From: Elusimicrobiota bacterium | Lineage (GTDB): Bacteria > Elusimicrobiota > Elusimicrobia > UBA1565 > UBA9628 | Length of the DNA stretch: 64,000 nucleotides | Direction of reading: 5' to 3' | Assembly: GCA_027451985.1 (NCBI GenBank) | Contig: DAIDHS010000005.1 | Coordinates: 267-64,266, forward strand | Shown here: one piece after another, positions 37,598 to 60,481 of the stretch | How positions within the stretch are numbered: the first letter of the stretch is position 1 | Layout of the letters: the number at the start of each line of letters is the position of its first letter | Position numbers and translations under genes: made by a program | The notes under the pieces: model-generated | Database searches by the model: none | What the model was told of the DNA's origin: nothing | The model's input: the letters and a program-made list of their open reading frames with translations, nothing else

Positions 37598-37627
37598 TTG
37601 CTCCTGCGCCCTTCTTCAAGGTAAGGT
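37598..37627 (+). promoter_or_regulatory. Sigma70-like promoter in the kdsD-divergent intergenic region
   Basis: TTGCTC, an 18-nt spacer, then TAAGGT. The ATG at 37639 lies 11 nt downstream. Confidence 0.3.
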
Positions 37628-37638
37628 AGAATTAAAAG

Positions 37639-44380: not shown

Positions 44381-45114
44381 GCGAGTGGTCGGGAAGGCTT
44401 GACGGCGACGCCGTTTGGAGCGGAGAGGTCCTCGTCAGCGGGGACGTTGTTGTTCCACGCGGAGCGCGTCTGCGCGTGGAGGCCGGCACGCGGGTCAGCT
44501 TTGCTTCCCGCCCGAAATGGTCTTGCGCGGTTTTTCGCGCGGCCCCCGAGGGCTATCCCATTGAGGCCTCTGAACGCGAGGCGTGCGACCTCGTGGTTCT
44601 GGGCCGCCTGGAGGCGGCGGGAACCCCGAATGCTCCGATTCTTATGGGAGGCGGGGGCGTCCCGTGGGGCGGAATTCTTTTCCTGGAGAGAGCCGCCGGC
44701 GTCCTGCGGCATTGCGTCATTGGGGTGAAAACCGAGTACGCCCTGCAGACTTTTGACGATTCGAGCCTGGTTTTGGAGGACTGCCGCTTGGGAGAGGCTC
44801 AGGTGGGAATCGCCGCTCGGGGGCTTTCGTGCGTGAGGGTTTCGGGTGGCTGCGTGCGCGCCACGCGTTGCGGCGCGGTGGCCTGCGAGGGCTCTCGCAT
44901 GGTTTTGGATCATCTCCAGATTGAAGATTCGCCCCAGGGCGTCTGCGCCGAGGATTGGGCCCTGGTGCGGGTCGCGGGCTCCCGATTCGCGTCCAATAGG
45001 GATTTTGCCGTTTCGGCCCGAGGGCATTCCTGGGCCAGACTTGATGGCTGCGGGTTCGAACGCTCCGGAGAGCCGGCCCTCGGGCGGGAGCAGGCCAGAA
45101 TCGATGTCCGCTAA
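44377..45114 (+). CDS. Right-handed parallel beta-helix repeat protein
   Basis: A periodicity of about 22 aa with hydrophobic/Gly/Cys rungs, for example LVLEDCRLGEAQVGIAARGLSCVRVSGGCVRATRCGAVACEGSRMVLDHLQIEDSPQGVCAEDWALVRVAGSRF. GTGA overlap with the upstream gene. Confidence 0.6.
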   Translation: MSEWSGRLDGDAVWSGEVLVSGDVVVPRGARLRVEAGTRVSFASRPKWSCAVFRAAPEGYPIEASEREACDLVVLGRLEAAGTPNAPILMGGGGVPWGGILFLERAAGVLRHCVIGVKTEYALQTFDDSSLVLEDCRLGEAQVGIAARGLSCVRVSGGCVRATRCGAVACEGSRMVLDHLQIEDSPQGVCAEDWALVRVAGSRFASNRDFAVSARGHSWARLDGCGFERSGEPALGREQARIDVR

Positions 45115-46462: not shown

Positions 46463-48426
46463 AAGTCGCCCTTGTTCAGCCGCCCGTCTGGTGGACCGTA
46501 GACCCGCCGCTCGGCTTGGCGCAAATCGCGGGCTGCCTCAAGCATCACGGCCACGAAGTCGCGGTGTTCGACTTGAACATTCTGCTGTGGAAGGATCGCC
46601 TGAAAAAATACGAAAGCCTGTGGGGTTGGGAGCAGTTTCACTTCTGGAACCAGCCGGAGTTCGTCTCCCGCTTCTTCTCGGAGAATGAAGCGCTCGTCGG
46701 CCGATACGTGGAGGCCATCCTGCGCACGGGCGCGCCCGTCATCGGGCTTTCCGTGCACAACGGATCGCATTTGGCCGCCTTGGAGATCGCGCGCCGGATC
46801 AAGGCCGGCGACAAGCGCCGGAAAATCGTCCTGGGCGGTCAGTACTTCTTTTTCGGCGACCAGGTCGAAGAGATGCTCCGCGAACCCTGTGTCGATGCCA
46901 TCGTGCGGGGAGAGGGGGACGAGTCGTTCCCCGAACTCGTCAAGCGCTTGGATGCGTCCGGAGCCCTCGAGCCTTTGCCCGGAGTCTGGATCAAGCGAGG
47001 CCAGGAGCTTGCTTCCGGGGGCGAGCCCGTCGCCATCCGAAATTTAGACCGCGTCCCCTTCGCCGACTTCACCAGTTTCCCGATGGAACTCTACACCGAC
47101 CCCGAGCGACTGCCCATGGCCGGCAGCCGCGGTTGCGTCTGGCAGTGCCGCTTCTGCAGCGCGCGCGCCTTCTGGACCGGGTACCGTTATATGGGTGGCG
47201 AGCGCATTTTCGCCGAGGTCCTGCATCACCGCAAGCTCTATCCGCCGCGCGGCCACGTCGAGTTCTACGACATCACGGCCAACGGCGACGTGAAAGCGCT
47301 TCATCTTTTCAGCCGGCTCTGGGTGGATCATGTTTCGGCGCATCCGGAGCACGCGACTGGCTGGAAAATCAACGCCATCATCCGCCCCGAGATGACGCCC
47401 GAGGTGCTGCGCGACCTGCGCAAGGCCAACTGCCACGACATCATCTACGGCATCGAGAGCGGATCCCCGAGGCTGCTCAAGGCGATGAACAAGGGCTTTG
47501 TGGTTCCCGTGGCCGAAGAGGTGCTCAAGAATACGCATGAGGCCGGTATCGTCACCGTCGGCAACTTCATGTTCGGGTTTCCGGGCGAGACCGAGGAGGA
47601 CTTCGCGCAGACTCTCGAGTTCCTGCGCCGCAATCACGGCAGCTTCAACCGGGTCTACGCGAGCGCCACGTTCACGAGCCTAGAGGAAAAAAGCTATCTT
47701 AAGGATCATCAAAAGGATTTCGGCATCAAGGAAGCCGCGCCGGAGCGGTTCCACAACCTCTACTGGGAAAGCGAGGACGGCGCCAACACTTACCCCGTGC
47801 GGCTCGATCGCTACAAGAGGTTTCGCGCCTTGGCGATTTCCTTGGGCATCGACGCGTACAAGGGGGTGAACGGTTCCTTGGAACAAGATCATCTGGCTAA
47901 TCTGGCCCAATACCATCATTACGCGGGCAAGCCGTTTTCTGCCATCGCGAACTATTTGGAGTATCTGGAGGGGGATTTCTATCATGAGCCGACCCGCCGC
48001 CATTTGATGGAACAGGAGCCGGCGCTTTGCGCTCTCCTGCGGGCCCAAAAAGCGCTGGCGAAAGCCAATCTTTTAACGGAAGCCGTTCACGAGGCGGAGA
48101 CGATTGGTCAGGCCGTGGAGCGCCTGGTGTTGGATGGCGCCGGGTTCGCGTCTGCTTTGGCCGAATTTCAAAATAGGACGGAAAAAGCCTTTCAATTGGC
48201 CCGTTCCCTGGCGCGGGCGTGGTATTCCCTCAAAAGCCTGCCGGAACAGGCTTTTAGGATCGTTTGGGATGGAGGTTCGTTCGTTCTGTATTGGTCCCAG
48301 GAAAAGGCGCCCGGAATCGCCGATTTGCGCGCTTTTAAGGACCGGCTGGGCCTCCATTTAAGGCTTGCCGAGGCGGAAATTCGGCGCGGTGAAGATAAGA
48401 AGCCGGCGCCAGCCTGCGTCCGGTGA
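46459..48426 (+). CDS. B12-binding domain radical SAM protein (class B)
   Basis: Begins VKVALVQPPVWWTVDPPLGLAQIAGCLKHHGHEV, with IGLSVHN, IVLGGQYF, cluster motif GSRGCVWQCRFC, YGIESGSPRLL, and NLYWESEDGANTYPVRLDRYKRF. It uses GTG 46459 overlapping the upstream stop (GTGA). Confidence 0.8.
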   Translation: MKVALVQPPVWWTVDPPLGLAQIAGCLKHHGHEVAVFDLNILLWKDRLKKYESLWGWEQFHFWNQPEFVSRFFSENEALVGRYVEAILRTGAPVIGLSVHNGSHLAALEIARRIKAGDKRRKIVLGGQYFFFGDQVEEMLREPCVDAIVRGEGDESFPELVKRLDASGALEPLPGVWIKRGQELASGGEPVAIRNLDRVPFADFTSFPMELYTDPERLPMAGSRGCVWQCRFCSARAFWTGYRYMGGERIFAEVLHHRKLYPPRGHVEFYDITANGDVKALHLFSRLWVDHVSAHPEHATGWKINAIIRPEMTPEVLRDLRKANCHDIIYGIESGSPRLLKAMNKGFVVPVAEEVLKNTHEAGIVTVGNFMFGFPGETEEDFAQTLEFLRRNHGSFNRVYASATFTSLEEKSYLKDHQKDFGIKEAAPERFHNLYWESEDGANTYPVRLDRYKRFRALAISLGIDAYKGVNGSLEQDHLANLAQYHHYAGKPFSAIANYLEYLEGDFYHEPTRRHLMEQEPALCALLRAQKALAKANLLTEAVHEAETIGQAVERLVLDGAGFASALAEFQNRTEKAFQLARSLARAWYSLKSLPEQAFRIVWDGGSFVLYWSQEKAPGIADLRAFKDRLGLHLRLAEAEIRRGEDKKPAPACVR

Positions 48427-48463: not shown

Positions 48464-48481
48464 TAATGAGATTATCACTTG

Positions 48482-49654
48482 ATGAAAACTTTGACCCGTG
48501 AAGCCCAAGAATTAGCCGCGGCCGCGCAAAAAACGGCCCCCTCCTTCCCCGCGTTACGGCGTCGCTTTTTAGAGCAGCGCCAGCGCGAAAATGTCGCTCT
48601 CAATAATAGAGAATGGGAAGAGAAAAAAACGATTTTATCCAGCACCCCGCAACGAATCTTCCTGCAGATCAACGCCGTGTGCAACGCGGACTGTGTTTTT
48701 TGCTCCAAGGGCTACGATTATCCGCTCTTCCGCATCGACGAATACAGGGAAAAATATGGGGAGCAGGTGACCCCCGTCCTGCAGAAAGCGCGGGAGGTCA
48801 TTCTGACCGGATCCGGGGAATTCCTGGGCCTTCCGGACGCGCCTAAAATCATCCGCTACTTCAACGAAGAATTCCCTCATGTTGAGAAATACATCGCGAC
48901 CAACGCCTCGCACCTGAAGCCGGAAATCGTGGATTTGATCGCGGGCTCCGGCAGCCGCTACACCCTGCAGCTCTCCCTGCACGGCAGCGACGAGGCGACC
49001 CACAAGCAGATGATGCGCTACAACGCCTATCCTCGCGTCATGGAGAACGTCCGCCGGCTCATAGAAGCGCGCGGCCGCAGCGGGAATATCTCGGTGTCCT
49101 TCATGTTCGTCATGACGACCTTGAACGTGGAAAACCTTCCGGATTTCGTACGCTTCGCCAAAGAGATGGGCGCCGAGCGCGTCTTGGCGGGCTACTTCTA
49201 CATTTACGAGTCCCAGCAGAAATACCTGTCCCTCTACTTCAAACAGGATTTGGCCAACCGCATCATCGACGAGGCCCGGCGCGTGGCCGAAGAGGTGGGC
49301 ATCGAGGTCCGCCTGCCGCACAAGTTCGGGCAGCCGCCCGAGACGGCGGCCAAGCCGACCTCGTGCATCGAGCCATGGCACCAGGTGATGATCAACCCCG
49401 ATGGGGCGATTCTTCCCTGCGACGTGTACGGCGGCTTCAATGAGAACTTGAACCAGAAAAGCTTCATGGAAATCTGGAACGGACCGGCCTACCGCGCCAT
49501 CCGAACGGCTCTGCGCAGCGGCGGAGGCTGCCTGACGACCTGTCCGCGCCACAATCCCATCGGCATCAACGACTGGCGCGCGCACGTCATCCACCGTCCC
49601 AAGGAAGACCGCCAGATCGCGAAGGAGTACCGGGAGGCCTTGAGAAAGCCATGA
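48482..49654 (+). CDS. Radical SAM/SPASM domain protein
   Basis: Motif LQINAVCNADCVFCSKG. SPASM-like CIEPWHQVMINPDGAILPCD...IWNGPAYRAIR...CLTTC. The ATG at 48482 is preferred over the TTG at 48479. Confidence 0.8.
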   Translation: MKTLTREAQELAAAAQKTAPSFPALRRRFLEQRQRENVALNNREWEEKKTILSSTPQRIFLQINAVCNADCVFCSKGYDYPLFRIDEYREKYGEQVTPVLQKAREVILTGSGEFLGLPDAPKIIRYFNEEFPHVEKYIATNASHLKPEIVDLIAGSGSRYTLQLSLHGSDEATHKQMMRYNAYPRVMENVRRLIEARGRSGNISVSFMFVMTTLNVENLPDFVRFAKEMGAERVLAGYFYIYESQQKYLSLYFKQDLANRIIDEARRVAEEVGIEVRLPHKFGQPPETAAKPTSCIEPWHQVMINPDGAILPCDVYGGFNENLNQKSFMEIWNGPAYRAIRTALRSGGGCLTTCPRHNPIGINDWRAHVIHRPKEDRQIAKEYREALRKP

Positions 49655-50613
49655 ACGCCGAAACCTCCCTGAACATGGCCTCCGCCCTGCCCAAGCGGAC
49701 CGTGGTTTTCGCCTGGGACATGCACTACAGCTGCAACTACCGCTGTCCCTATTGCTGGTACACCACGACCGGCTGGACGGAGCTGGCCAAGAAAAGCGTC
49801 TACAAGACCGCCCAGGAGTGGGCCGAAGTCTGGGAGCGGATGCACCGCAAATACGGCCGCTGCCAGCTGCGCATCACCGCGGGCGAGCCTTTCACCTACC
49901 CCGATTTCCCGCAAATCATCACCACGCTGACCCAGTGGCACGACGTGCAGGTGACCAGCAACTGTTCCAACACCGAGGCCATGGAGAAATTCGCCGCGCA
50001 GGCCGATCCGAAGCGGGTCGAGGTGGACTGTACCTTTCATCCTCTGCAGGGCGAATTCGAGCCTTTCGTGGAAAACGTTCTGCGCCTGCGCCGGAGCAAG
50101 TTCACCGCCAACGTCTGCTACCTTGCCTATCCCCCGCAGATGCCTCAGATGGGCGAGTTCAAGAAGCGCTTCAAGGAGCGCGGCGTCTACATGAACATGG
50201 CCATTTTTTGGGGGCGCTACAAGGACAAAGATTATCCGTTCGCCTACACGGATCAGGAGAAGGCGTGGATCAAAGAAGTCATCGGCTACGAGACGGGACC
50301 GGAAACTGTCAACCTCGACCCGCTCGTCATCCGGGGCAAGGTCTGCGGCGCGGGGCAGCGCTATGCCGTGGTGCAGGCGGACGGCAAGGTCTACCGCTGC
50401 GGCCAGCTCTGCCACGAGGGCATGTCCTTGGGCAGCATTTTCGATCCGGCGTTCGAGCTTTTCCCGACCGGCCGCGCCTGCTCCGTGGACTACTGCAAGT
50501 CCAAGGAATTCCAGGCGGCTTGGGAGGATGAGGAAAAGCAGGCGATGCTTGAGAAAAATAAATTCTCGTCCGCGGGCGCGGCCTCCGTTGGGGCGCCCTC
50601 ACAGGGCTCATGA
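49651..50613 (+). CDS. Radical SAM protein, tandem 'CNYRC' family, paralog A
   Basis: Motifs are WDMHYSCNYRCPYCWY, AGEPFTYPDF, TFHP, DKDYPFAYTDQEKAWI, and the C-terminus CGAGQRYAVVQADGKVYRCG...CSVDYCKS. ATGA overlap with the upstream gene. Confidence 0.75.
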   Translation: MNAETSLNMASALPKRTVVFAWDMHYSCNYRCPYCWYTTTGWTELAKKSVYKTAQEWAEVWERMHRKYGRCQLRITAGEPFTYPDFPQIITTLTQWHDVQVTSNCSNTEAMEKFAAQADPKRVEVDCTFHPLQGEFEPFVENVLRLRRSKFTANVCYLAYPPQMPQMGEFKKRFKERGVYMNMAIFWGRYKDKDYPFAYTDQEKAWIKEVIGYETGPETVNLDPLVIRGKVCGAGQRYAVVQADGKVYRCGQLCHEGMSLGSIFDPAFELFPTGRACSVDYCKSKEFQAAWEDEEKQAMLEKNKFSSAGAASVGAPSQGS

Positions 50614-51611
50614 GCGAGACGGGCGCTGGCTCCGCGCTGAGCCAAACACGAGGCTCTTTGTGGCCCTGGTGGAGCAACGAGGCCTGGGATCGGACCTCGT
50701 TTACCTGGGATTTGTGGTACGGCTGCAACTATCGCTGCTCCTACTGCTGGTGGGAGATGGGCGATTTGTGGGCGGATTTGGCGAAGAAGCACCTCATTCT
50801 TCCTCCAGAGAAATGGCTCACGTGCTGGGACCGGATTTATGATCGCTATGGAACGGTGCGCGTGGACGTGCTTGGCGGCGAGCCGATGCGCTACCCGTCT
50901 TGGAAGGAGCTTTTCGAGGGGCTCTCGCGGCGGCATTTGGTTTCCATCACGACCAACTTGTCCATCTCGATGGCGGATTTGCGGGACATCACGGACAAAA
51001 TTTCTCCGGAACGCATTCATTTTGCGGCCAGCTACCATCCGCAGTTTGCCAAGTGGGAGGATTTCGTCGAAAAAGTGGGCTTTCTAAAAAGCCGCGGCTA
51101 CGCGCCCCATGTCCTGGTCGTGGCGTGGCCGCCGCTTCTTGGGGATCTTTCCCGCTGGAGCGAGGCCTTTAAAAAAATGGACGTTCCCTTCACCACGAGC
51201 GTTTTCCAGGGCAAGCACGAGGGACGCGAGTATCCGGATTCCTATACCAACGAGCAAAAGGCCTTGCTGGGCCTGACGATTCCGGTCGCAGAGGAGCAGC
51301 GCTACCGCCTGGAGCGGGAAAGCACGCGGGGCAAGCTCTGCGGCGCCGGACACGTCTACGCGAACATCAAGGCCAATGGCGACGTCTATCGCTGCGGCCA
51401 GGATTGCCTGGGCGGAGCCAAGCCTTTCGGGAATATTTTCGATGCGAACTTCGGACTTCATGAATCGCCGGAACCCTGCCCCTACCAGCATTGCAGCTGC
51501 GGCGAGTTCGCGTTTTTGTGGGAGGATTGGAGCCGGAAAAAGGGCCGCCGCGAACTCGCGGTCGCCGATTCGCTGCGGCGCGGAGCGGCGCGGGAGGCGG
51601 GGCGTGGCTAA
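50610..51611 (+). CDS. Radical SAM protein, tandem 'CNYRC' family, paralog B
   Basis: Motifs are WDLWYGCNYRCSYCWW, GGEPMRYPSW, SYHPQ, GREYPDSYTNEQKALL, and CGAGHVYANIKANGDVYRCG...CPYQHCSC. ATGA overlap with the upstream gene. Confidence 0.75.
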   Translation: MSETGAGSALSQTRGSLWPWWSNEAWDRTSFTWDLWYGCNYRCSYCWWEMGDLWADLAKKHLILPPEKWLTCWDRIYDRYGTVRVDVLGGEPMRYPSWKELFEGLSRRHLVSITTNLSISMADLRDITDKISPERIHFAASYHPQFAKWEDFVEKVGFLKSRGYAPHVLVVAWPPLLGDLSRWSEAFKKMDVPFTTSVFQGKHEGREYPDSYTNEQKALLGLTIPVAEEQRYRLERESTRGKLCGAGHVYANIKANGDVYRCGQDCLGGAKPFGNIFDANFGLHESPEPCPYQHCSCGEFAFLWEDWSRKKGRRELAVADSLRRGAAREAGRG

Positions 51612-52452
51612 TCCGCAGGTGCGCTTTACCTGGAACATCCATTGGAGCTGCAACTTTCGCTGCTCCTATTGCTTCTTCGACGGGCATTGGGCGGAGTACG
51701 GCCGCCGCAACGTCTACCAGACGGTGGAGCAGTGGATGGGGCACTGGCGGCGCATCTACGAGAAATACGGTCGGTGCTATTTGACCATCAACGGCGGCGA
51801 GCCCTTCGCCTATCCTAATTTCGTGGAGTTGATGGTCCAAGTCTCGGCGCTGCACTGGCCCATCAACGTCACGACCAATACCTCGCTGCATTTGAAGGAA
51901 TTCGTCGAACGCGTCGACCCGGCGAAGGTTTCCATCTCCATCAGCTTTCACCCGCAGTACCACAAAATCAACGAGTTCCTGAAGACCGTGAAGTTTTTGC
52001 GGGATCATAAGGCCAATATCGGCTGCATCAACTTCGTCGCCTGGCCGCCGTTCCTGAACGATTTGTCGGACTATATCCGGCGCTTCCAGGAGATCGGAGA
52101 GAGCCTCAAGGTCATCCCGTTCATCGGAGCCTACGAGGGCGTGAACTACCCCGACCACTATAACGAGGAGCAGAAAAAAATCCTGGGCCTGAGCGATAAC
52201 TGGCTGGAGAGCAAGCGCCACAAAGGCATGCTCTGCCGCGCCGGGAACCAATCGGCGCTTCTTTTGCCGACCGGCAAGGTGGCCCGCTGCGGGCAAATCG
52301 GCGATCGCTATCTTATCGGAGATTTTTTTCAGGAAGGGTTTTCCTTGATGAAGGAGCCCATGCCCTGCGATGAGCAATTTTGTCCCTGTGACGAGTGGAA
52401 AGTCATCCCGGATGAAAAGCCGCCGGAAAAAGCGGGGGCATGGCTGCCATGA
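51604..52452 (+). CDS. Radical SAM protein, tandem 'CNYRC' family, paralog C
   Basis: Motifs are WNIHWSCNFRCSYCFF, GGEPFAYPNF, SFHPQ, GVNYPDHYNEEQKKIL, and CRAGNQSALLLPTGKVARCG...CDEQFCPC. The start was moved to GTG 51604, an 8-nt overlap. Confidence 0.75.
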   Translation: MANPQVRFTWNIHWSCNFRCSYCFFDGHWAEYGRRNVYQTVEQWMGHWRRIYEKYGRCYLTINGGEPFAYPNFVELMVQVSALHWPINVTTNTSLHLKEFVERVDPAKVSISISFHPQYHKINEFLKTVKFLRDHKANIGCINFVAWPPFLNDLSDYIRRFQEIGESLKVIPFIGAYEGVNYPDHYNEEQKKILGLSDNWLESKRHKGMLCRAGNQSALLLPTGKVARCGQIGDRYLIGDFFQEGFSLMKEPMPCDEQFCPCDEWKVIPDEKPPEKAGAWLP

Positions 52453-53762
52453 TCCGCTTGGCTCTGGTGCAATGCCCCGTTTGGGGCGTGGACGACCCGC
52501 CTTTAGGGTTGGCGCAGCTGCTTGGGTGCGTCGCGCACTGCAACCACCATGCGCGCCCGTTCGATCTCAATGTCAGGCTGTGGAAGGAGTGCACGCAGGA
52601 TGAGAAGCGCTTTTGGAGCCGGGAAGCGCTGCCCCTCTGGAACGACCGGGCCTGGACCGTAGAACGAGCGCGAGCTTGGGAGGCTAAACTCGCGCGCTAC
52701 GCGGAGGAGATATTGTCGGATGATCCGCAGGCCGTTCTGTTTTGGGCCGCCGAGGGCTCGCAGTGGTTCAGTCTTGAAGCGGCCAAGCGCGTCAAAGCGA
52801 AGAACGCGGCCGCTAAAATTTTTATCGGCGGTCCGTATTTCAACGCCGCCTCCCGCGTCGACGCCTTTATCGCGGAGCCCTGCCTTGACGGCGTCATCGC
52901 GGGCTCGGCCGACGACTTGTTGGCGAAGCTCCTGGGTCTCTACCAAGCCTGCGGCCGGTGGATGCCTTTGCCCGGGATGACCGTCAAGGAAAAGGGAACG
53001 GTCGAGAGCGGCGGGCGCCCCGTGCCTTTTACGTTCGACTGGGATTTGGCGCCGCTGTGCGATTTCTCCGGCTTCGCGACCGAGCTCTACCGCAAGCCGC
53101 TTCAAATGCCGGTTGCCTCAAGCCGCGGCTGCCATTGGTCTCACCCGTCGTGCGCGCGGGACTATTGGGGCAAGTACTCCTTTAAGAGCGGCGACCGGAT
53201 TTTCACCGAGGTGGCCAAGGCCTTGCAGGGTCAAAAATTCTGGCGGCATGTCCAGTTCTACGATTTGGACGCCAATGGAAAGCCGGACAGCCTCAAGCGT
53301 TTTAGCGAGATGATTCTCGAGAACCGGCTTCCCGAGGCCGGCCTGACTTGGAGCGCGCGCGTTTCTCTCGACTCGGTGCCGGACGCGCAAAGGCTCGAAC
53401 TGTTCGCGCGCGCGGGCTGCCGCGAAATCGTCTACGGCTTGGAAACGGAGCTTTCAACCGATGGGCCCAGTGCGGCGGAACGGATTTTGCGGGAGACGCA
53501 CGCGGCTGGCATCGGCTGCATCGTTTCTGCGGCCGCGCTTGACAGGTTTGGTGCTTGGGTCGACGGCGTCGAAGCCGAGCGCGCGGTTTTGGACGCTCCC
53601 GCCCGGCACCGGGGCTTGGCCGCGGCGTCCGCGGTGCGGCAAAAACGCCTGGAGGCGCCGGGCCGGTCTTCGGAGATGGAGTGGTCTCCGTTTTTTAGCC
53701 AAGGGACGGCGGGGCTTCGCGGCCGCCGTTGCGTTAAGTCCGCCGCGCTAGCGGCGCACTAA
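52449..53762 (+). CDS. B12-binding-domain radical-SAM-like protein with a degenerate cluster motif (likely non-catalytic paralog)
   Basis: The N-terminus MIRLALVQCPVWGVDDPPLGLAQLLGCV parallels the VKVALVQ proteins. The site aligned to GSRGCxxxCxFC reads SSRGCHWSHPSCARDYW, leaving only two Cys with the wrong spacing. GIESGS is replaced by GLETEL. The C-terminal WES..DG region is absent. ATG 52449 overlaps the upstream stop (ATGA); ATG 52440 is an alternative. Confidence 0.65.
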   Translation: MIRLALVQCPVWGVDDPPLGLAQLLGCVAHCNHHARPFDLNVRLWKECTQDEKRFWSREALPLWNDRAWTVERARAWEAKLARYAEEILSDDPQAVLFWAAEGSQWFSLEAAKRVKAKNAAAKIFIGGPYFNAASRVDAFIAEPCLDGVIAGSADDLLAKLLGLYQACGRWMPLPGMTVKEKGTVESGGRPVPFTFDWDLAPLCDFSGFATELYRKPLQMPVASSRGCHWSHPSCARDYWGKYSFKSGDRIFTEVAKALQGQKFWRHVQFYDLDANGKPDSLKRFSEMILENRLPEAGLTWSARVSLDSVPDAQRLELFARAGCREIVYGLETELSTDGPSAAERILRETHAAGIGCIVSAAALDRFGAWVDGVEAERAVLDAPARHRGLAAASAVRQKRLEAPGRSSEMEWSPFFSQGTAGLRGRRCVKSAALAAH

Positions 53763-53781
53763 AGAAAACAGGGAGGAGCTT

Positions 53782-54858
53782 ATGGGATCGTGTGGAACGG
53801 GCGGTTGCAGCGGGTGCGGCACCAAGCATGACGGCCCGCAGGCTCCCGAGGGCGACATGATCGCGCGGGGAGAACTGGATGCGGCCATTCCCCATGAGAA
53901 GCAGGAATACCGGCCTCTTTTGCCCCGCCGCGCGCCGCCCTACAAAGTGCATTGGAATTGGGAAATCATGCTGCCCTGCAACTACCGCTGCAGCTATTGC
54001 GTGGTCCATAACGAGGCGGCGCAATACCTCATTCAAGGAGTGTCCGAGTGGCGTAAGGTCTGGGAGCGGATTTTTAAGCTCTACGGCTGCTGCCAGGTGC
54101 GCTTCGCGGGCGGCGAGCCGACCATCTACCCGCACTTCATTGACTTGGTCGGCATGATTTTGGAAATGCATACCGTGGACATCACGACCAACCTGAGCTT
54201 CGACGTCGAAGAGTGGATTAAGAAAGTTCCCAGTCAGGGTATCGCGATTTCCGGGAGCCTGCACCTGGAGCACCAAAAGCCGGAGGACTTTCTCAAAAAA
54301 CTTCTGATCCTGCGCAACAAGGGCAACCAGCTGATTTCCGCCTCGCTGGTCGCCTATCCGACTTATCTGGATCGAATCGACGCGATTCGGGCCATGTTTG
54401 AAAAGGAGCAGGTCCTTTTCAAGATTATTCCCTTCAACGGCGTCTACCAGGGCAAGCGTTATCCCGGCGCCTACACCGACGACGAGCGGATTCTGCTGGG
54501 CATGCAGGTACAGCGCTCCCAGGACGAACTCGGCAAGACGCTCAACAAGCAGTGGCAGGACTACGCCAATGCCAAGCCTAACGACAAGAACTTCATGGGC
54601 ATGCCCTGCCATATGGGCGAAATGTACGCCAAGATTTATTCCGACGGCACGGTGCGCCGATGCTGCCACACGGGCGTCGACATCTTGGGCCACATCACCG
54701 ATCCGAACCTAAAGCTTTTCGAGGGACCGGAACCTTGTACCGTTATGAGTTGCAGTTGCTGGAAGCCCATGGTCGCCGGGAAATACGAGGAGAAGGTCCA
54801 TATGCTCTGGCAGTCGGCGAATCATCCCGTTTATCCCGAGAAGGCGCCCAATGCCTAA
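53782..54858 (+). CDS. Radical SAM protein, tandem 'CNYRC' family, paralog D, with N-terminal Cys/Gly-rich tail
   Basis: A strong SD (GGGAGGAG) lies 3 nt upstream of the ATG. The tail is MGSCGTGGCSGCGTKHDG. Further motifs are WEIMLPCNYRCSYCVV, GGEPTIYPHF, GKRYPGAYTDDERILL, and CHMGEMYAKIYSDGTVRRCC...CTVMSCSC. Confidence 0.75.
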   Translation: MGSCGTGGCSGCGTKHDGPQAPEGDMIARGELDAAIPHEKQEYRPLLPRRAPPYKVHWNWEIMLPCNYRCSYCVVHNEAAQYLIQGVSEWRKVWERIFKLYGCCQVRFAGGEPTIYPHFIDLVGMILEMHTVDITTNLSFDVEEWIKKVPSQGIAISGSLHLEHQKPEDFLKKLLILRNKGNQLISASLVAYPTYLDRIDAIRAMFEKEQVLFKIIPFNGVYQGKRYPGAYTDDERILLGMQVQRSQDELGKTLNKQWQDYANAKPNDKNFMGMPCHMGEMYAKIYSDGTVRRCCHTGVDILGHITDPNLKLFEGPEPCTVMSCSCWKPMVAGKYEEKVHMLWQSANHPVYPEKAPNA

Positions 54859-55516
54859 GTCGGAGCGTGAGATGCAGGGGTGCTGGCGGTGGCTGGGAAA
54901 AACAGGCGTCCGCCTGAATGGAGAAAAAATTATCTACATCGATCCCATCAGCGTGGAATCGGGCGCCCCTAAGGCCGACCTCATCCTCCTGACCCATGGG
55001 CACGAGGAGCATTTTTCTCCAGCGGACGTGACGAGGGCGGCAGGTCCTCAGACCATCGTGGCCGGACCTGCGGCCTGCATAGGACTTTTTCGCCTCAACC
55101 AGTTGCCTTTCGAGGCGGGGGAATCCAGAACAATTTTGGGCGTTTCCGTTACGGCCACGCCCGCTTATGGCTTGGACAATTCGCGTCATCCGAAAAGCGC
55201 CGCGGGATTGGGATATCTCATTGATCTGGGCGGCATGAGGATTTTCCATGCCGGTGACACGGCCGCCGTACCGGAGTTGCGCGCTCTTAAGGCGGACGCG
55301 GGCTTTCTGCCCGTAGGGCCCGGGCTTATGTCCGCCCGAGAGGCGTCGGCGCTGGCGCGGGACATGGGGCTCCGCGCGGCTGCTCCTACTCACATTGATC
55401 CGGGCTCAAAGGAAGAACAGGATTTTTTCGCGGAAATCGAAAGCATGGGCATTGCAGCGTGGGCGGCGGCGGATATTTTTTCGGCTTGCGGTTTGACGGC
55501 GGCCCGGGGAGGCTGA
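54851..55516 (+). CDS. MBL-fold metal-dependent hydrolase (UPF0173-like)
   Basis: Motifs are IIYIDPIS, ADLILLTHGHEEHFS, FHAGDT and APTHID. The start is uncertain (ATG 54851 or the downstream Met at 54872). Confidence 0.7.
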   Translation: MPKSEREMQGCWRWLGKTGVRLNGEKIIYIDPISVESGAPKADLILLTHGHEEHFSPADVTRAAGPQTIVAGPAACIGLFRLNQLPFEAGESRTILGVSVTATPAYGLDNSRHPKSAAGLGYLIDLGGMRIFHAGDTAAVPELRALKADAGFLPVGPGLMSAREASALARDMGLRAAAPTHIDPGSKEEQDFFAEIESMGIAAWAAADIFSACGLTAARGG

Positions 55517-55517
55517 T

Positions 55518-56882
55518 ATGGGTGGATGCGGAGACAAGTGCGGCGGATGCGGCGGTGGGTGCGGGACCGAGCCTCACCTCCCGGGGAACGAATTCGCCCC
55601 GGTCAATCTGTCCCTGGCGCCAAGCCCGGCGACATCTCTTAAAGCGGCTGCGGTGCTGAAAAAAAACGAGGGTGGCCGGACGCCGGGATTTAGGCGTTAC
55701 TTGCCTCCGTTCAAGGTGTTTTTCACCTGGGACATCCAGTACGCCTGCAACTACCGCTGCAGCTACTGCATCATCTTCAAGAGCCCGCAATGGGATTCAT
55801 TCTTGTCCAAGAAGGATCGTCCGCCCATCCCGGCGGAGCGCTGGATGGAGATTTGGGACGACATCTACGACAAGTACGGCAGCGCGCACATCCATTGCTC
55901 CGGCGGCGAGCCGTTCTACTATCCGCGCTTCATCGACATCCTGGCCCACATCACCAAGAAGCACACGATGGAATGCGACACGAATCTTTCCTTCCCGGTG
56001 GACAGCTTCATCGGCCGGGTCGAGAAAGGGCGCTTTCGCTTCGCCCCGTCGTTTCATCCCGAGTTCGCTGAGCTTGAACCCTACATCGAGAAGTGCGTTA
56101 AGCTTAGGAAAGCAGGATACGATCTGGAGGGGGTCAACTACATTTGTTGGCCGCCGCACTTAAAGCGCATTCCGGAGTTCAAGGCCGCCTTCAACAAGAT
56201 TGGCGTGGTCTTGACGCTCATTCCCTTCCGCGGGCGCTTCGAGGGCAAGGACTATCCCGACGCCTACACGCCCGAGGAGCGGCGCTGGATCAACCGCAAC
56301 AGCGGCAATCCCGTGCTTTCCGAGGATTACGGGAGCTGGTACAACGGAGGAGGGCAGGGATCGAAGAAGCACGAGGACCTCAAGGCGGATCCGCAGCCCC
56401 ATGCCGAAGAGCCCGCGCCGGTCGAGGTATCCTCGCCGGAGCCAAATCCAGCGGCGGAGCCCACGCCTGCGGTGATTGATCGCGTGCCCCAGTCCGTTGC
56501 GGCTCCGGAGCCGCCTCAGCAAGAAGTGCACGGACCGGAGCCCTCCGAAGTGGCATCCGAGACGGCGGCGCGGGCTCTTGAGGAAATCCACGCGCACGAG
56601 GCGGAAAAGTCGGGCGCCGCATGCGCCAGCCACGGGCGCACGGCCGTTCATTGCCGCGCGGGCCAGATGTACGCCAAAATTCATCCGGACGGCAACGCGC
56701 TGCGGTGCTGCTTCATCGACGAGCGGGGCTCGATGGGAAATCTCATCGACGGGACCTTTAAGCTCTATGAGGAGCCGGAATTGTGCGAGTACCCGGCGTG
56801 CAGCTGCTGGAAGAGCATGATCGTGGGCGAGGAGGAGCGCTGGCTGCGCCATTGGGTGGGCGTGGCTAAAAACAAGGCGTGA
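55518..56882 (+). CDS. Radical SAM protein, tandem 'CNYRC' family, paralog E, with N-terminal Cys/Gly-rich tail and an internal Pro/Glu-rich insertion
   Basis: An SD (GGGGAGG) lies upstream. The tail is MGGCGDKCGGCGGGCGTEPH. Further motifs are WDIQYACNYRCSYCII, GGEPFYYPRF, SFHPE, GKDYPDAYTPEERRWI, an acidic/Pro-rich insertion of about 100 aa, and CRAGQMYAKIHPDGNALRCC...CEYPACSC. Confidence 0.75.
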   Translation: MGGCGDKCGGCGGGCGTEPHLPGNEFAPVNLSLAPSPATSLKAAAVLKKNEGGRTPGFRRYLPPFKVFFTWDIQYACNYRCSYCIIFKSPQWDSFLSKKDRPPIPAERWMEIWDDIYDKYGSAHIHCSGGEPFYYPRFIDILAHITKKHTMECDTNLSFPVDSFIGRVEKGRFRFAPSFHPEFAELEPYIEKCVKLRKAGYDLEGVNYICWPPHLKRIPEFKAAFNKIGVVLTLIPFRGRFEGKDYPDAYTPEERRWINRNSGNPVLSEDYGSWYNGGGQGSKKHEDLKADPQPHAEEPAPVEVSSPEPNPAAEPTPAVIDRVPQSVAAPEPPQQEVHGPEPSEVASETAARALEEIHAHEAEKSGAACASHGRTAVHCRAGQMYAKIHPDGNALRCCFIDERGSMGNLIDGTFKLYEEPELCEYPACSCWKSMIVGEEERWLRHWVGVAKNKA

Positions 56883-57433
56883 AAATCTACTTAAGCAGCA
56901 GTCTCTCGGAGGAGGACAAGCCGTTGCGTGAGAGGCTTGTCCAAGTCGCCGCGGATTACGGCGTCACGATCGTGTCCGGCCCGAGGCCGTGGCCTGCCCA
57001 AGACGCCGTGCCTCCTGAGGTCGCCGAAGCCATCGACTCCGCGGACTTCGCTTTTTTTTGGATTTCCGCCGATGGCCCGGACGTCTCATGCATCAACTTG
57101 GAAGCGGGCTATATCCGAAACTCCGCACGGCGCCTTCCTTTTTTAATTTTTTCGCCCAACGGCTTGGAACCCGCCGGTTGCCTGAAATACCGGCCCTTCA
57201 TTGTTTTTTATCTTCGCGACGCCCGCATTACCCTTGAGCAGATGTGGAATCCCATCCATCATGAATACCGCGAGCGGCCGCAGATGGCGGCGGCCATTCA
57301 TGGCGTCCTAATCGCCCTTGTCGGCATGTTGCTGATGCGCCGCGCTCCCGAAGCGCCGGCTTCTGAGGCGGAGGAAAAACGCCAAGATCAGCTGCGCGAT
57401 GCGGCGGCGGCCTTGCGCGGGAGCCAGCCGTGA
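56879..57433 (+). CDS. Hypothetical small protein with a C-terminal TM anchor (possible Rossmann-like TIR / nucleoside deoxyribosyltransferase-like fold)
   Basis: Begins MKIYLSSSLSEED, with AEAIDSADFAFFWIS, LEAGYIRNSARRLPFLIF, and a TM segment AAAIHGVLIALVGMLLM. The fold guess comes from motif resemblance only. GTGA overlaps occur at both ends. Confidence 0.5.
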   Translation: MKIYLSSSLSEEDKPLRERLVQVAADYGVTIVSGPRPWPAQDAVPPEVAEAIDSADFAFFWISADGPDVSCINLEAGYIRNSARRLPFLIFSPNGLEPAGCLKYRPFIVFYLRDARITLEQMWNPIHHEYRERPQMAAAIHGVLIALVGMLLMRRAPEAPASEAEEKRQDQLRDAAAALRGSQP

Positions 57434-58833
57434 CGCCGTCTCGAACCGAAGCTTCGTTGGCGTCTTTAGATTCCGGGCTTTCGCCTCAGGATGTTGCTTT
57501 GCGGCACGAAAAACGGGCGCGCGAGCATTATCTGCGGGGAGACTATCCCTCCACGGTCGAAGACCTCAAGCTCTGCCTGGGAACCGGCGTTGTCCCCGAG
57601 CATAAGGATTTGCGGATGCGCTTGCTCATCATGCAGAGCTTGCGCCGCTTCGGCAAACAAGACGAAGCCTCCGCGGCTCTTCGGGAGATGGAAACCCGCT
57701 ACGGGAAAAGCCGCGAAAAATATATCCAGAACCTTTTGCTTAACGAAAAGGAAATCCAAGAGGGCCGCGTCAAGATCGAGTCGTATCCCACGCGCCTGAC
57801 CATCCGGCCGACCAGCCGTTGCTCCGTCCACTGCATCATGTGCACTTTTTGGAAAGAAACGCCCTGGGATATGCCGCAAAAGACTTTAGACGAGGTGGCC
57901 GATCTGTATCCTTTCATGGAAGACATCTTGTGGCAGGGCGGCGAGCCTTTCGAGATGGAGCGCGGCGTCTTGGAGCGCATCCTCTTGCGCGGGCGGGACT
58001 ATCCCCGAATGCTGCAGAATTTCATCACCAACGGCCAGCACATCGACAAACGGTGGGCCGAGATTCTGGTAAGCATGAATGTTCATATGAAGATATCCAT
58101 CGATGGGACCACGCCGGAGGTTTACGAGAAAATCCGGGTCAAATCGAGCTTCGCAAAGATCATCGCCTCGATTGACAACCTTAACAGTGAGATGGCGCGG
58201 CAGAACCGGCGCATCGGCATGTGGATCCATATGGTGGTCCAGCGCTTCAATTACCACCAGATCACGGACATGATCGAGTTCGCCCGCAAGCACCGCTTCG
58301 ACGGGGTGGCCCTGAGCCCGATGGAGGGGGATCTCTACCGCAAAATCGACGTCTTTAACTACGGTGACTCGGAGATTTGGCGCTCCATCGAGGAACAGCG
58401 CGCGCGGGCCCGGCAGATGTGCCTGAACTACGGGATTTATCTGGAAGACAACATGCCGCCGCCGCCCTCGCCGGACGACGCGCCTCATCCCATCGACGAA
58501 GAGGAAAACCAGAAGCGTTTTTCGCTCTATCCCATGCCTTTTGAAGACGGCGCGCGCTACGTTTCTAAGGAGTACTCATATTTCTGCCTTTCCCCCTGGA
58601 AAAACATGATCCTGCGAAACGGCGGCGGCGTGCTGCCCAACTGGCACTGCGGCGAGCGCTACATCGGGAGCATCCATGAAAATTCGCTCCTGGAAATTTG
58701 GAACGGCGAGCCCATGCAGAAGGTGCGGCGGGGCATCGTGGAGAGGCAATTCGGCGGCGTGTGCCGCCATTTTTGCCTTTCCGGGGCTTTGATGGAAACC
58801 TGGAAGCACCATATGGAGTGGTACTGGTCCTGA
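57430..58833 (+). CDS. Radical SAM/SPASM domain protein with a TPR-like N-terminus
   Basis: Motif IRPTSRCSVHCIMCTFW. SPASM-like CLSPWKNMILRNGGGVLPNWHCGERYIGSIHENSLLEIWNGEPMQKVR...CRHFC. The N-terminal about 100 aa are helical and TPR-like. Confidence 0.8.
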   Translation: MTPSRTEASLASLDSGLSPQDVALRHEKRAREHYLRGDYPSTVEDLKLCLGTGVVPEHKDLRMRLLIMQSLRRFGKQDEASAALREMETRYGKSREKYIQNLLLNEKEIQEGRVKIESYPTRLTIRPTSRCSVHCIMCTFWKETPWDMPQKTLDEVADLYPFMEDILWQGGEPFEMERGVLERILLRGRDYPRMLQNFITNGQHIDKRWAEILVSMNVHMKISIDGTTPEVYEKIRVKSSFAKIIASIDNLNSEMARQNRRIGMWIHMVVQRFNYHQITDMIEFARKHRFDGVALSPMEGDLYRKIDVFNYGDSEIWRSIEEQRARARQMCLNYGIYLEDNMPPPPSPDDAPHPIDEEENQKRFSLYPMPFEDGARYVSKEYSYFCLSPWKNMILRNGGGVLPNWHCGERYIGSIHENSLLEIWNGEPMQKVRRGIVERQFGGVCRHFCLSGALMETWKHHMEWYWS

Positions 58834-58854: not shown

Positions 58855-60459
58855 ATGAGCCATAAAGCCGAAATCTTTCTCCTGCAAATGCCCCAGGCTT
58901 GTCCTGAGCCCAATATCGCCCTGGCGCAGCTCTACGCTTACGCAAAACAGGAAGGATTCGAGACGCGGGTCATGGACGTCAGCATAGAGCTCTACCACCG
59001 GCATAAAGCTGCCTCCGCCAATTTGTGGGCCGATGAAACGTGGTCGATTTGGATGGATCAGGCTTTTGTCTCCAGGTTCCTGGCGGCAGACAAGGCTTGG
59101 ATGGAGGAGCGGTTCCTTAAGGACATCCTTGCGGCGCCAAAGCCCGTCGTGGGTTTTTCGGTCAGCGGGCCGTCCTTGCGTGCCAGCCAAGAGTTGGCGC
59201 GCTGGATCAAGTCCGCGCGGCCGGACGCTTTAGTGGCCGTCGGGGGACAGGTGTTTGCCGTGGAGCCGTTTTTCTACCGGCAGGCCCTGGAGGACGCTTG
59301 CATCGACGCCGTCATTTTCAGCGATGGAGAGGAAACGCTTTGCGAGCTGGCGTCCCTTTACGGGGAGGGCCGGGATTGGGACGGTTGCCGCGGACTTTAC
59401 GTGCGCAACCCCGAGGGCGGCTTTCGCTTCACGGGTGAGCGCCCGCTCTTGAACCTGGACGACCTGCCGTTCGCCGATTACGCGCCTTTCAACATGGGGC
59501 TCTACGGCAGCAACCATGTGAGCGCCCACGATTTGGTTCTGATGACCAGTCGCGGCTGTGTGCGCCGGTGCTCCTTCTGCGGCAACCGGACGGCGTGGAA
59601 GGGCTTTAGGCAGATGAGCGGAGAAAGGGTGCACGCCGAAATCCAACATCAGCGGCGGGTCATGCCGAGCCTTTCCCACGCCGACAGCGAAATCAAGTTC
59701 TACGACCTTCTCATCAACGGCGACATGCGGAAAATGATCCGCATGGCCGAGCTTCTGGCCGCGGATTCGCAGCCGCCACTGGCCTGGAAAGACGTCAACG
59801 CCGTGGTCCGACCCGAGATGACCTACGAGGCCTGCCGCAAGCTCTATGAGGCAGGCTGCCGCATCCTGATTATCGGCCTCGAATCGGGCTCGCAGAAAGT
59901 CTTGAATGCGATGGACAAAGGCCAGACCGTGGCCCAAATGAAGGAGGTTCTCAAAAACGCCCATCGCGCCGGCCTCAAGGTTCGGGGAAATTTCATGTTC
60001 GGGCACCCCGGCGAGACCGAGGAGGATTTCGCGCTCACCATGGACTTTTTGAGGGAGATGCACCCGTACATCTACCAAGCCTACCCCAGCTATACGTTCA
60101 CACACTTGGAAGGCCGTCTGGCCCAGAACCCGGAGAAATGGGGCGTGCAGAAGAACCAGCATTACCTGTACTGGGAATCGGATGACGGCAGCAGCACCTT
60201 CCCCAAGCGCCTGGAGCGCTACAAGGCCTTCCGCGAGTTGGCCGTTTCGTTGGACAAGCTCCCGCAAGGCGACGGCCTCGTGCTTTCCTTGGATGCCTAT
60301 ATGCACTTTAATTTCGGCGGCTACTATGAGAATTTGGGCAAGCCGAAGGAAGCGCTCGATCACTATTGGGAATACCTGCGGGAAGATCCGGCTAACGCGT
60401 TCGTTAAGGAAAAGATCCTGAAGCTCTCAAGGGCCCTGACGGCCGTCGGCGCCGCTTGA
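58855..60459 (+). CDS. B12-binding domain radical SAM protein (class B)
   Basis: Motifs are IFLLQMPQACPEPNIALAQLYAYAKQEGFE, VGFSVSG, VAVGGQVF, cluster motif TSRGCVRRCSFC, IGLESGSQKVL, and YLYWESDDGSSTFPKRLERYKAF. Confidence 0.8.
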   Translation: MSHKAEIFLLQMPQACPEPNIALAQLYAYAKQEGFETRVMDVSIELYHRHKAASANLWADETWSIWMDQAFVSRFLAADKAWMEERFLKDILAAPKPVVGFSVSGPSLRASQELARWIKSARPDALVAVGGQVFAVEPFFYRQALEDACIDAVIFSDGEETLCELASLYGEGRDWDGCRGLYVRNPEGGFRFTGERPLLNLDDLPFADYAPFNMGLYGSNHVSAHDLVLMTSRGCVRRCSFCGNRTAWKGFRQMSGERVHAEIQHQRRVMPSLSHADSEIKFYDLLINGDMRKMIRMAELLAADSQPPLAWKDVNAVVRPEMTYEACRKLYEAGCRILIIGLESGSQKVLNAMDKGQTVAQMKEVLKNAHRAGLKVRGNFMFGHPGETEEDFALTMDFLREMHPYIYQAYPSYTFTHLEGRLAQNPEKWGVQKNQHYLYWESDDGSSTFPKRLERYKAFRELAVSLDKLPQGDGLVLSLDAYMHFNFGGYYENLGKPKEALDHYWEYLREDPANAFVKEKILKLSRALTAVGAA

Positions 60460-60481
60460 ACTTGGGACTTTGCGGCGACTC

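Follow-up and report, generated by a model that had tools for sequence, protein, structure and literature searches.

The window considered here is a stretch of 64,000 nt from a contig of an uncultured Elusimicrobiota bacterium, known from a metagenome-assembled genome, in which five tandem genes, named par1 to par5, encode compact radical S-adenosylmethionine (rSAM) enzymes. The five proteins are ancient and probably functionally distinct paralogs of an uncharacterised compact rSAM family with a core of about 280 aa. Judging from sequence comparisons, the operon that contains them, with its 13 rSAM domains, most likely decorates a cell-surface sugar polymer. Relatives are cited below by the fetched loci (L numbers) and the protein clusters (P numbers) in which they were found.

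An earlier note on this DNA had reported five such genes, and an open reading frame (ORF) is found on the + strand for each of them:

49651–50613, + strand: par1, compact twitch-type rSAM protein of 320 aa; Elusimicrobiota orthologs at 60–95% identity; groups with the C-terminal modules of par3::par1 fusions
50610–51611, + strand: par2, compact twitch-type rSAM protein of 333 aa; deepest branch of the five; best relatives in L091 (51%) and L010 (42%)
51604–52452, + strand: par3, compact twitch-type rSAM protein of 282 aa with a GTG start; ~50% identity to the N-terminal modules of 46 fused proteins
53782–54858, + strand: par4, compact twitch-type rSAM protein of 358 aa with an N-terminal Cys/Gly-rich extension; Elusimicrobiota orthologs at 73–81%; 42–46% identity to par4-like fusion modules
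55518–56882, + strand: par5, compact twitch-type rSAM protein of 454 aa; Cys/Gly stretch resembling CX3CX2C at the N-terminus, insertion of ~95 aa before the twitch domain

The first three copies had also been described as chained by overlapping codons, which is correct: the starts at 49651 and 50610 are part of ATGA overlaps, and par3, from its GTG at 51604, shares 8 nt with the end of par2, stop codon included. The par3 frame is open upstream to an ATG at 51376. Since paralogs and orthologs (287–296 aa) align only from GTG 51604, this codon is the probable start and ATG 51376 is not supported. The compact enzymes have neither transmembrane (TM) segments nor signal peptides.

The last two copies have additional features. 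par4 opens with a Cys/Gly-rich stretch, MGSCGTGGCSGCG (53782–53840, + strand), which is kept in 10 of 11 Elusimicrobiota orthologs and is not present in the fused homologs examined, which are of Omnitrophota type. par5 opens with MGGCGDKCGGCGGGCG (55518–55570, + strand), itself a CX3CX2C. These Cys/Gly-rich N-termini may form an extra metal or cluster site. The insertion of par5 (~56370–56640, residues ~285–375) is rich in Pro, Glu and Ala, separates the rSAM core from the twitch domain and is probably disordered. It is absent in the orthologs P0114 (74% identity, 323 aa) and those of L010 (76–84%), and no DNA tandem repeat lies beneath it.

A compact rSAM family with its own signature

In pairwise BLASTP comparisons the five proteins are 29–36% identical, with E values of 1e-38 to 1e-60, and a MAFFT alignment of the five copies has 42 invariant columns, the other copies being 30–33% identical to par1. 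No relationship at such a level exists with the eight remaining rSAM proteins of the operon, for which the best E is 8e-06 and most values are above 0.001. A hidden Markov model built from the five copies gives 433–479 bits on these copies and at most 12.6 bits on all other ORFs of the window. Thus, the genes do form one paralog family, as had been claimed. The chain of shared motifs described for them is also real and colinear, but the exact patterns proposed match four of the five copies for most motifs. Deviations are WEIMLP and SLHL in par4, GNALRCC in par5, and AGEP, SNCS and CxxxxCxS in par1, the last Cys of CxxxxCxC being absent from the latter. The CX3CX2C motif, in the form CN[YF]RC[SP]YC, is found in all five copies, and the G-E-P motif is invariant.

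Conservation was counted over 205 homologous modules from other genomes, with residues numbered as in par1. The SAM-cluster Cys C28, C32 and C35 and the C-terminal Cys C232, C250, C277 and C282 are kept in at least 202 of these modules, and a fifth C-terminal Cys in 184. Besides the cysteines, W22, N29, Y34, W61, GEP, Y83-P84, N104/S106, P161, Y195-P196-x-x-Y199 and R249 are kept in at least 194 modules. The signature exceeds generic rSAM features, and this conservation of family-specific residues contradicts the possibility that the copies share only generic motifs and come from different known families. The Cys conservation holds in both halves of fused proteins as well. Since all of them keep the SAM-cluster and the auxiliary-cluster Cys, par1–par5 and both halves of the fusions are probably catalysts.

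The five proteins belong to the rSAM superfamily and, within it, to the SPASM/twitch subgroup. Pfam PF04055 gives 33.9–45.2 bits for par1, par3, par4 and par5 and 26.7 bits for par2, just under the gathering score of 29.5, with a match that covers only the first ~100 residues of the copies. Towards the C-terminus, the invariant C232-x12-G245-x4-C250 is the CX9-15GX4C opening of the SPASM/twitch motif, and the Foldseek neighbours are SPASM/twitch proteins; both observations agree with the suggestion of the earlier note that the C-terminal Cys module is an auxiliary-cluster domain. This module has four invariant Cys and one frequent Cys, compared with the seven-Cys motif of full SPASM. Because there are only four or five C-terminal Cys, we infer a twitch-like domain with one auxiliary [4Fe-4S] cluster rather than the two of full SPASM. 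The full SPASM model PF13186 gives 14.7–18.4 bits against 21.5, with no match at E ≤ 0.1 in par3 and par4, and TIGR04085 gives 20.3 bits against a cutoff of 27.

Beyond the generic Radical_SAM model, no Pfam or NCBIfam model reaches its cutoff on the five copies. The best NCBIfam model for all of them is NF038073 (STM4011 family radical SAM protein), with E values of 1e-17 to 1e-21. The compact family resembles this one in its small size and in a nearly full-length alignment (model positions 11–253 of 278) that includes the C-terminal Cys region, but the scores of 61.6–75.8 bits are far under the cutoff of 200. It is therefore a sister family of NF038073, and the copies are not members of the latter. 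No characterised family claims the copies, in line with the earlier reader's failure to recognise one. STM4011 itself is uncharacterised, and the only paper found on it lists it in an expression table. A defence role, with an assignment to antiviral, viperin-type rSAM enzymes, was considered and rejected at the level of the PADLOC models; PADLOC pVip and NF038283 match only the N-terminal 70–120 residues, with 20–55 bits.

The AlphaFold2 model of par3 (pLDDT 87.3, pTM 0.85) predicts a partial TIM-barrel fold. The nearest solved folds in Foldseek are SkfB, BlsE, anSME, CteB, PqqE, viperin, MoaA, SpeY, EpeE and BtrN, with a query TM of at most 0.64 and 11–21% identity, and the best sequence match in the PDB is anSME (5.7e-08). 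A close solved homolog was rejected, the top query TM of 0.64 being a generic SPASM/twitch likeness. On this model the fold class is clear, without a close characterised relative. The SPASM rSAM enzymes anSME (4K36–39), SkfB (6EFN), CteB (5WGG) and PqqE (6C8V) share the start of the SPASM motif with the compact family and give a query TM of 0.58–0.64. Unlike these peptide-modifying enzymes, the compact family has four or five C-terminal Cys instead of seven, no RRE domain and no precursor gene. The likeness to BtrN (PDB 4M7T) and SpeY (7WZV) lies in the architecture: a compact rSAM core, a short C-terminal domain in which Cys residues ligate a single auxiliary cluster, and the CX9-15GX4C motif. 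In Foldseek these two match the par3 model with E values of 1e-5 to 1e-6 and 12–21% identity, but with a query TM of only 0.37–0.44. Their conserved residues differ from those of the compact family (W22, H130, YPxxY, R249), and they work alone on small molecules, whereas the compact family occurs in arrays of 3–9 copies.

Relatives, fusions and the age of the array

A scan of 1.84 billion representatives, with clusters at 50% identity, puts the size of the family at 686 clusters for a threshold of E ≤ 1e-30 and at 3137 for E ≤ 1e-10. The par1 ortholog P0089, labelled Elusimicrobia, is 95% identical to the window copy. The top matches are proteins of 550–690 aa with two complete modules, many of them labelled Candidatus Omnitrophica/Omnitrophota. 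After splitting of the modules and scoring against the window copies, ~85 distinct natural proteins were found to fuse two modules, in recurrent ordered combinations:

par3-like::par1-like fusion: 46 occurrences; ~50% and ~41% identity to the window copies
par1/2-like::par4-like fusion: ~30 occurrences; par4 half 42–46% identical
par4-like::par5-like fusion: 3 occurrences

In locus L006, labelled Planctomycetia, par1::par4::par5 occurs as a triple fusion and B12-rSAM::par3::SPASM as a second fused protein, and further members of the family are fused to B12-rSAM and SPASM-rSAM domains. L091 keeps the order par3-par1 as adjoining separate genes. The number of copies in relatives, which the earlier note had proposed to check, varies from one to nine modules per locus:

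L092 (JGI metagenome contig; par1 ortholog at 60%): 1 family module
L003 and L005 (Elusimicrobiota): 3 family modules
L010 (Elusimicrobiota): 4–5 family modules
Window (Elusimicrobiota): 5 family modules
L091 (Elusimicrobiota): 7 family modules
L004 (unlabelled, with Omnitrophota-type proteins): 8 family modules
L001 (unlabelled, with Omnitrophota-type proteins): 9 family modules
L006 (Planctomycetia): 9 family modules

L092, with its single compact module, carries three tandem B12-rSAM copies (10989–16422) that are 56–60% identical to the window gene at 46459–48426. Different rSAM classes are thus multiplied in different genomes.

In a neighbour-joining tree of 25 modules, par1, par3, par4 and par5 each group with Omnitrophota-type modules, and par2 stands alone on a deep branch, with no clear ortholog in other phyla. 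The former four are each 41–54% identical to Omnitrophota-type or Planctomycetia modules and are closer to these than to their own neighbours. The order of genes is shared across phyla (glycosyltransferase, SPASM, B12 plus TPR plus SPASM, B12, SPASM, compact modules, TPR-SPASM); the order of the copies differs among close Elusimicrobiota relatives.

The earlier note had read the array as a local expansion of a gene family. A recent, lineage-specific tandem expansion of redundant copies would agree with genes that are tandem, on the same strand and overlapping, but we consider it very improbable. The copies retain only 29–36% mutual identity, four of them have nearer counterparts in another phylum, and orthologs of individual copies reach 60–95% in other Elusimicrobiota. 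Low mutual identity, cross-phylum orthologs and the variable number and order of copies argue for an ancient and reshuffled set of paralogs. The duplications are therefore old, the copies represent distinct orthologous classes and the array has been rearranged between genomes.

The operon around the array

The array is part of a gap-free run of 18 genes over 24 kb (38360–62119, + strand), with many overlapping stop and start codons, which is probably one translationally coupled operon. It contains 13 intact CX3CX2C rSAM motifs, distributed over five compact rSAMs, three B12-rSAM domains and five SPASM-rSAM domains, and in addition one degenerate B12-rSAM. Promoter-like sites (3, against a shuffled mean of 4.2) and terminator-like sites (32, against 24.9 ± 5.4) are at or near expectation. 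No neighbour in the operon reaches the cutoff of any curated NCBIfam system. The genes other than par1–par5, together with the convergent gene that follows the operon, are:

38360–40321, + strand: soluble GT2-like glycosyltransferase of 653 aa, first gene of the operon; Glycos_transf_2 26.5 bits (gathering score 23.3), no TM segment
40314–41483, + strand: rSAM/SPASM protein of 389 aa; Radical_SAM and SPASM, motif CNLKCVMC; orthologs in L003 (77%) and L001/L006 (37–41%)
41480–44380, + strand: three-part fusion of 966 aa, B12-binding rSAM, TPR and rSAM/SPASM; Pfam B12-binding, two Radical_SAM, TPR and SPASM; two CX3CX2C motifs
44377–45114, + strand: protein of 245 aa, probably a right-handed beta-helix; no Pfam match, no signal peptide; 55% identical ortholog in L003 with a weak Beta_helix match
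45104–46462, + strand: rSAM/SPASM protein; probable start at ATG 45104, overlapping the previous stop; Pfam match on the ORF 44846–46462; L003 ortholog of 438 aa
46459–48426, + strand: B12-binding rSAM protein; probable start at GTG 46459 in a GTGA overlap; best NCBIfam model TIGR03975, 145 bits against a cutoff of 282
48479–49654, + strand: rSAM/SPASM protein of 391 aa; Radical_SAM and SPASM; orthologs directly upstream of compact modules in L003, L010, L091, L001 and L006
52440–53762, + strand: degenerate B12-rSAM homolog of 440 aa; no Pfam match, TIGR03975 48 bits; aligned with the three B12-rSAMs of the operon
54851–55516, + strand: metallo-beta-lactamase-fold hydrolase of 221 aa, inside the paralog array; Lactamase_B_2/B_3; homologs equivalently placed in L003 and L091
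56879–57433, + strand: protein of 184 aa with one C-terminal TM helix (TM-like segment 134–157); no Pfam or NCBIfam match
57430–58833, + strand: rSAM/SPASM protein of 467 aa with an N-terminal extension that is TPR-like by eye; Radical_SAM and SPASM
58855–60459, + strand: B12-binding rSAM protein of 534 aa; B12-binding and Radical_SAM, motif CVRRCSFC
60470–62119, + strand: membrane-anchored SGNH/GDSL-like protein with TPR, 549 aa, last + strand gene; TPR_19/TPR_12, sub-threshold Lipase_GDSL_2, N-terminal TM-like segment
62094–63347, − strand: membrane-anchored GDSL/SGNH hydrolase of 417 aa, convergent; Lipase_GDSL_2 48.4 bits, N-terminal TM-like segment; weak homologs in L003

The stop codon of the GT2-like gene overlaps the next start by 8 nt, and L003 has a fragment with 60% identity at the same position. 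On inspection, its C-terminus (~200 aa, residues ~440–640) looks like a coiled coil, with a repeated heptad-like sequence of E, R and K, and recalls the coiled-coil 'rulers' of O-polysaccharide chain-length systems. The three-part fusion at 41480, a hallmark of the cluster in different phyla, has orthologs of 896–985 aa in L001, L003, L004 and L006 and is better conserved in these loci than any other gene of the cluster, and L092 has a Beta_helix/NosD protein of 637 aa at the position of the 44377 gene. In the degenerate B12-rSAM protein (52440), the middle Cys of CX3CX2C is lost (CHWSHPSC), the ESGS region is deleted and the C-terminus is truncated. The gene is kept at the same position in L010 (48%) and L091 (43%), and its product may serve as a scaffold without catalytic activity or be an enzyme of a non-canonical type. 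Two homologs of the 184-aa protein come after the par5 ortholog in L010. In L001, L006, L012 and L014 the cluster ends with paralogs of the 57430 type, for which Pfam finds TPR, Radical_SAM and SPASM, and GDSL-TPR proteins recur in L004, L003 and L088. It is uncertain whether the convergent GDSL hydrolase at 62094 belongs to the system.

The rest of the window holds housekeeping and signalling genes. A membrane protein of 1000 aa with a sub-threshold YfhO match (19412–22414, − strand) is divergent from a phosphoglucomutase/phosphomannomutase gene (22446–23996, + strand), and an SIS+CBS (KpsF-like) gene lies at 36556–37857 (− strand). These three envelope-sugar genes precede the operon by 0.5–19 kb and might be part of its pathway. 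A HemN/HemW-like rSAM gene at 31184–32284 (+ strand; Radical_SAM and HemN_C), next to valyl-tRNA synthetase and apart from the cluster, appears to have a housekeeping function. An ORF of 111 aa (37948–38283, + strand) is located upstream of the operon, in the one intergenic gap of notable size.

Substrate and proposed chemistry

Several members of the family are joined to carbohydrate-handling domains or sit in glycan loci, and for this reason a glycan substrate is favoured. The glycan-fused modules give 280–340 bits with the window profile and are 29–43% identical to the window copies, as the copies are among themselves. In P0186 (1623 aa) a compact module is fused to GT2+GT2+GT1, in P0157 to two Wzt_C carbohydrate-binding domains, in P0135 to an aldo-keto reductase, and in P0145, P0132 and P0326 to O-methyltransferases. 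L086 has the order GT4, WecA-like transferase, Wzm, Wzt and rSAM-Wzt_C, the last with an overlapping start, and L087 the order Wzm, Wzt, GT2-GT2-GT1-rSAM, GT2, Wzy_C/WaaL-like and WecG. In L088, genes for DegT, GT2, GT4, two PMT_2 and GT9 surround a double fusion and a single module. L004 has a multi-glycosyltransferase protein of 1869 aa, two GDSL-TPR proteins and a phosphodiesterase/sulfatase, and L003 has PMT and GDSL genes. The Omnitrophica Wzt protein P0338 and the double fusion P0078 probably lie on one contig (the longest contig is 57,596 for both). The window operon itself begins with a GT2 and ends with membrane-anchored SGNH proteins. As a separate observation on L087, the region 12947–17979, downstream of its Wzm/Wzt/glycosyltransferase-rSAM locus, holds genes for an rSAM/SPASM protein, an S24-like peptidase, an ABC exporter and PqqD together with two further rSAM genes, so glycan-type and RiPP-like (ribosomally synthesised and post-translationally modified peptide) rSAM systems stand side by side on this contig.

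The closest known arrangement is found in ABC-transporter-dependent O-polysaccharide pathways, in which WbdD/WbbB-type proteins modify or terminate the chain and are read by the carbohydrate-binding domain of Wzt. Like such modules, the family member of L086 is fused to Wzt_C right after Wzm-Wzt, and that of L087 is at the C-terminus of a multi-glycosyltransferase, polymerase-like protein after Wzm-Wzt; the window glycosyltransferase is apparently coiled-coil-tailed. The O-polysaccharide chain terminators known so far comprise kinases, methyltransferases and Kdo transferases but no rSAM enzymes. An exporter, an initiating transferase and glycosyltransferases accompany the family members in L086 and L087; for the window, the scans of its 64 kb gave a weak GT2 and SGNH proteins only and no Wzm/Wzt. 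A terminator role for the compact family is a candidate function. BtrN and SpeY, in turn, act on aminocyclitol or sugar substrates, and a carbohydrate-type substrate is the favoured reading for the compact family too. We hold with moderate confidence that the five compact enzymes have non-redundant tailoring functions on a glycan or glycoconjugate, together with the B12-rSAM and SPASM-rSAM enzymes. Stepwise processing of one substrate, one of the two options raised in the earlier note, is compatible with the data and is the interpretation that we prefer.

Several points weigh against this interpretation. Pfam scans found no Wzm/Wzt, Wzx/Wzy, flippase or initiating transferase in the 64-kb window, and its GT2 match is weak (26.5 bits). 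The rSAM-Wzt_C fusion P0157 is a single protein cluster. The B12-rSAMs are closest, although under cutoff, to the RiPP C-methyltransferase models TIGR03975 and ApyD, most solved structural neighbours of the compact enzymes act on peptides, and a distant Nocardia gamkensis relative is in a RiPP-like locus. Families of rSAM enzymes switch substrate class easily, and an association via other members is indirect. Literature searches returned no paper that describes the compact family and no biochemical report on any member; the papers on Xanthomonas that they returned had no bearing on it.

Part of this evidence would be explained if the operon matured a ribosomal peptide or protein, with the compact rSAMs cross-linking, epimerising or oxidising a precursor, the B12-rSAMs C-methylating it and the glycosyltransferase glycosylating it. 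We consider this unlikely, though it is the strongest competitor. It agrees with the 133–145 bits that the B12-rSAMs reach with TIGR03975, with peptide-acting structural neighbours such as SkfB, anSME, CteB, SuiB, PqqE and EpeE, and with the TPR domains, suited to protein-protein contacts, that are fused to several rSAMs. The Nocardia relative (L019 6100–11808, Nocardia gamkensis NBRC 108242; 60 bits with the window profile and 69 with NF038073) has as its neighbours an NHLP-type peptidase/ABC exporter, a methyltransferase of class I and a peptidase that is creatininase/MftE-like. However, the gap-free operon has no small ORF, and the sole nearby candidate for a precursor, the 111-aa ORF, has no homolog in the fetched loci, most of which stop short of that position, the coverage of relatives upstream of the glycosyltransferase being limited. 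Pfam scans of the cluster found no PqqD/RRE, leader peptidase or peptide exporter, and all NCBIfam RiPP models score far under cutoff. Fusions to glycan-handling domains and positions in Wzm/Wzt loci are also seen for close members, at ~300 bits, and a glycan is more likely than a peptide as the substrate. A lipid or cofactor as the product seems less probable still. Up to 13 rSAM genes, several of them B12-fused, lie beside nif paralogs in Elusimicrobia lineages IV and V, and a tetrapyrrole was proposed as their target (Meheust et al. 2020, bioRxiv 10.1101/765248). The window shares with these suites, from groundwater Elusimicrobia with group VI nitrogenase paralogs, the phylum, the many rSAMs per locus, several of them B12-binding, and the variable copy number. 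Its B12-rSAMs weakly match HpnJ, HpnR, BchE and ladderane-type models, and GDSL/SGNH proteins can act on lipids. Yet no NifH/D/K-like gene was found in the 64-kb window or in twelve annotated related loci. The operon contains no fatty-acid, isoprenoid or tetrapyrrole genes, with the HemN-like gene 6 kb upstream behind housekeeping genes, and all lipid and cofactor NCBIfam models are far under cutoff. Meheust et al. do not resolve the rSAM families of those suites.

The other option of the earlier note, an obligate hetero-oligomer in which pairs such as par3+par1 or par4+par5 work as one enzyme, concerns the assembly of the array. It obtains indirect support from the ~85 two-module fusions (par3::par1, par1/2::par4 and par4::par5), from the triple fusions in L006, from the adjacent par3 and par1 genes of L091 and from the translational coupling of the window genes. 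The AlphaFold2 model of the fusion P0008, made with a 40-sequence alignment, does not bear out a fixed complex: its modules are confident, but the linker 283–314 has a pLDDT below 50, the pTM is 0.50 and no interface between modules is predicted. Both fusion modules keep all catalytic and auxiliary Cys, neither being scaffold-like. Copy numbers of one to nine with varied sets of partners speak against a fixed stoichiometry, and the copies stand in the order 1-2-3 in the window but 3-1 in the fusions. An obligate complex is therefore doubtful in our opinion, ranking between the peptide and the lipid or cofactor readings.

Returning to glycan tailoring, we infer how many clusters of which type are present, and also the chemistry, the glycan substrate and the sequence of the steps, as follows. 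From its motifs and fold, the N-terminal CX3CX2C [4Fe-4S] cluster would cleave SAM to give a 5'-deoxyadenosyl radical, and the C-terminal twitch domain, through C232, C250, C277, C282 and the frequent fifth Cys, would hold the auxiliary [4Fe-4S] cluster. Each compact enzyme would abstract one H atom at its own position or residue of a sugar-based substrate. Candidates for this substrate are lipid-linked glycan or activated sugar precursors, which would be modified at the cytoplasmic face, since the enzymes have no TM segments or signal peptides. In the twitch enzymes BtrN and SpeY the auxiliary cluster takes the second electron in an oxidation. By analogy, the Cys-ligated auxiliary cluster of the compact enzymes might remove a second electron, with a keto-sugar or other oxidation, an epimerisation or a cross-link as the type of outcome. 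The B12-rSAMs could add C-methyl groups and the SPASM-rSAMs perform further radical steps, after which the product would be exported to the envelope and undergo SGNH-type processing. The five conserved classes would correspond to five different sites or residues, and variable module sets between genomes would produce variable glycans, as in O-antigen loci.

A more far-reaching proposal, which we put forward only tentatively, is that this is the first rSAM family acting on polysaccharide chains or lipid-linked precursors. The clusters of Elusimicrobiota, Omnitrophota and Planctomycetia, with at least 13 rSAM domains and up to nine, often fused, modules, would then be 'radical tailoring lines' that install many C-H functionalisations (oxidation, epimerisation, C-methylation, cross-links) in a surface glycan, and some members would make a chain-end mark read by the Wzt carbohydrate-binding domain. 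Sugar-acting rSAM enzymes are known only as single enzymes for small molecules or nucleotide sugars, and literature searches found no polymer-acting rSAM example.

What is new in these observations is a large unstudied family with arrays of up to nine modules and fusions in fixed order, which in three or more phyla is coupled to genes for B12-rSAMs, SPASM-rSAMs and glycosyltransferases. It is unusual for a large uncharacterised twitch family to be stacked at 3–9 modules per locus and fused in fixed pairs and triples, and the natural fusions indicate which modules to pair in tests. Even with a peptide substrate, an operon with 13 intact rSAM motifs and five conserved classes of paralogs is a promising place to look for new enzymes. 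Should the glycan reading hold, there would be an unexplored radical chemistry on the cell-surface polymers of Elusimicrobiota, Omnitrophota and Planctomycetota, together with a large new set of C-H-functionalising biocatalysts. If the enzymes act on polysaccharides, they would reveal hyper-modified glycans of a new class, and rSAM enzymes would have a further, so far unrecognised part in the envelope biogenesis of these largely uncultured phyla.

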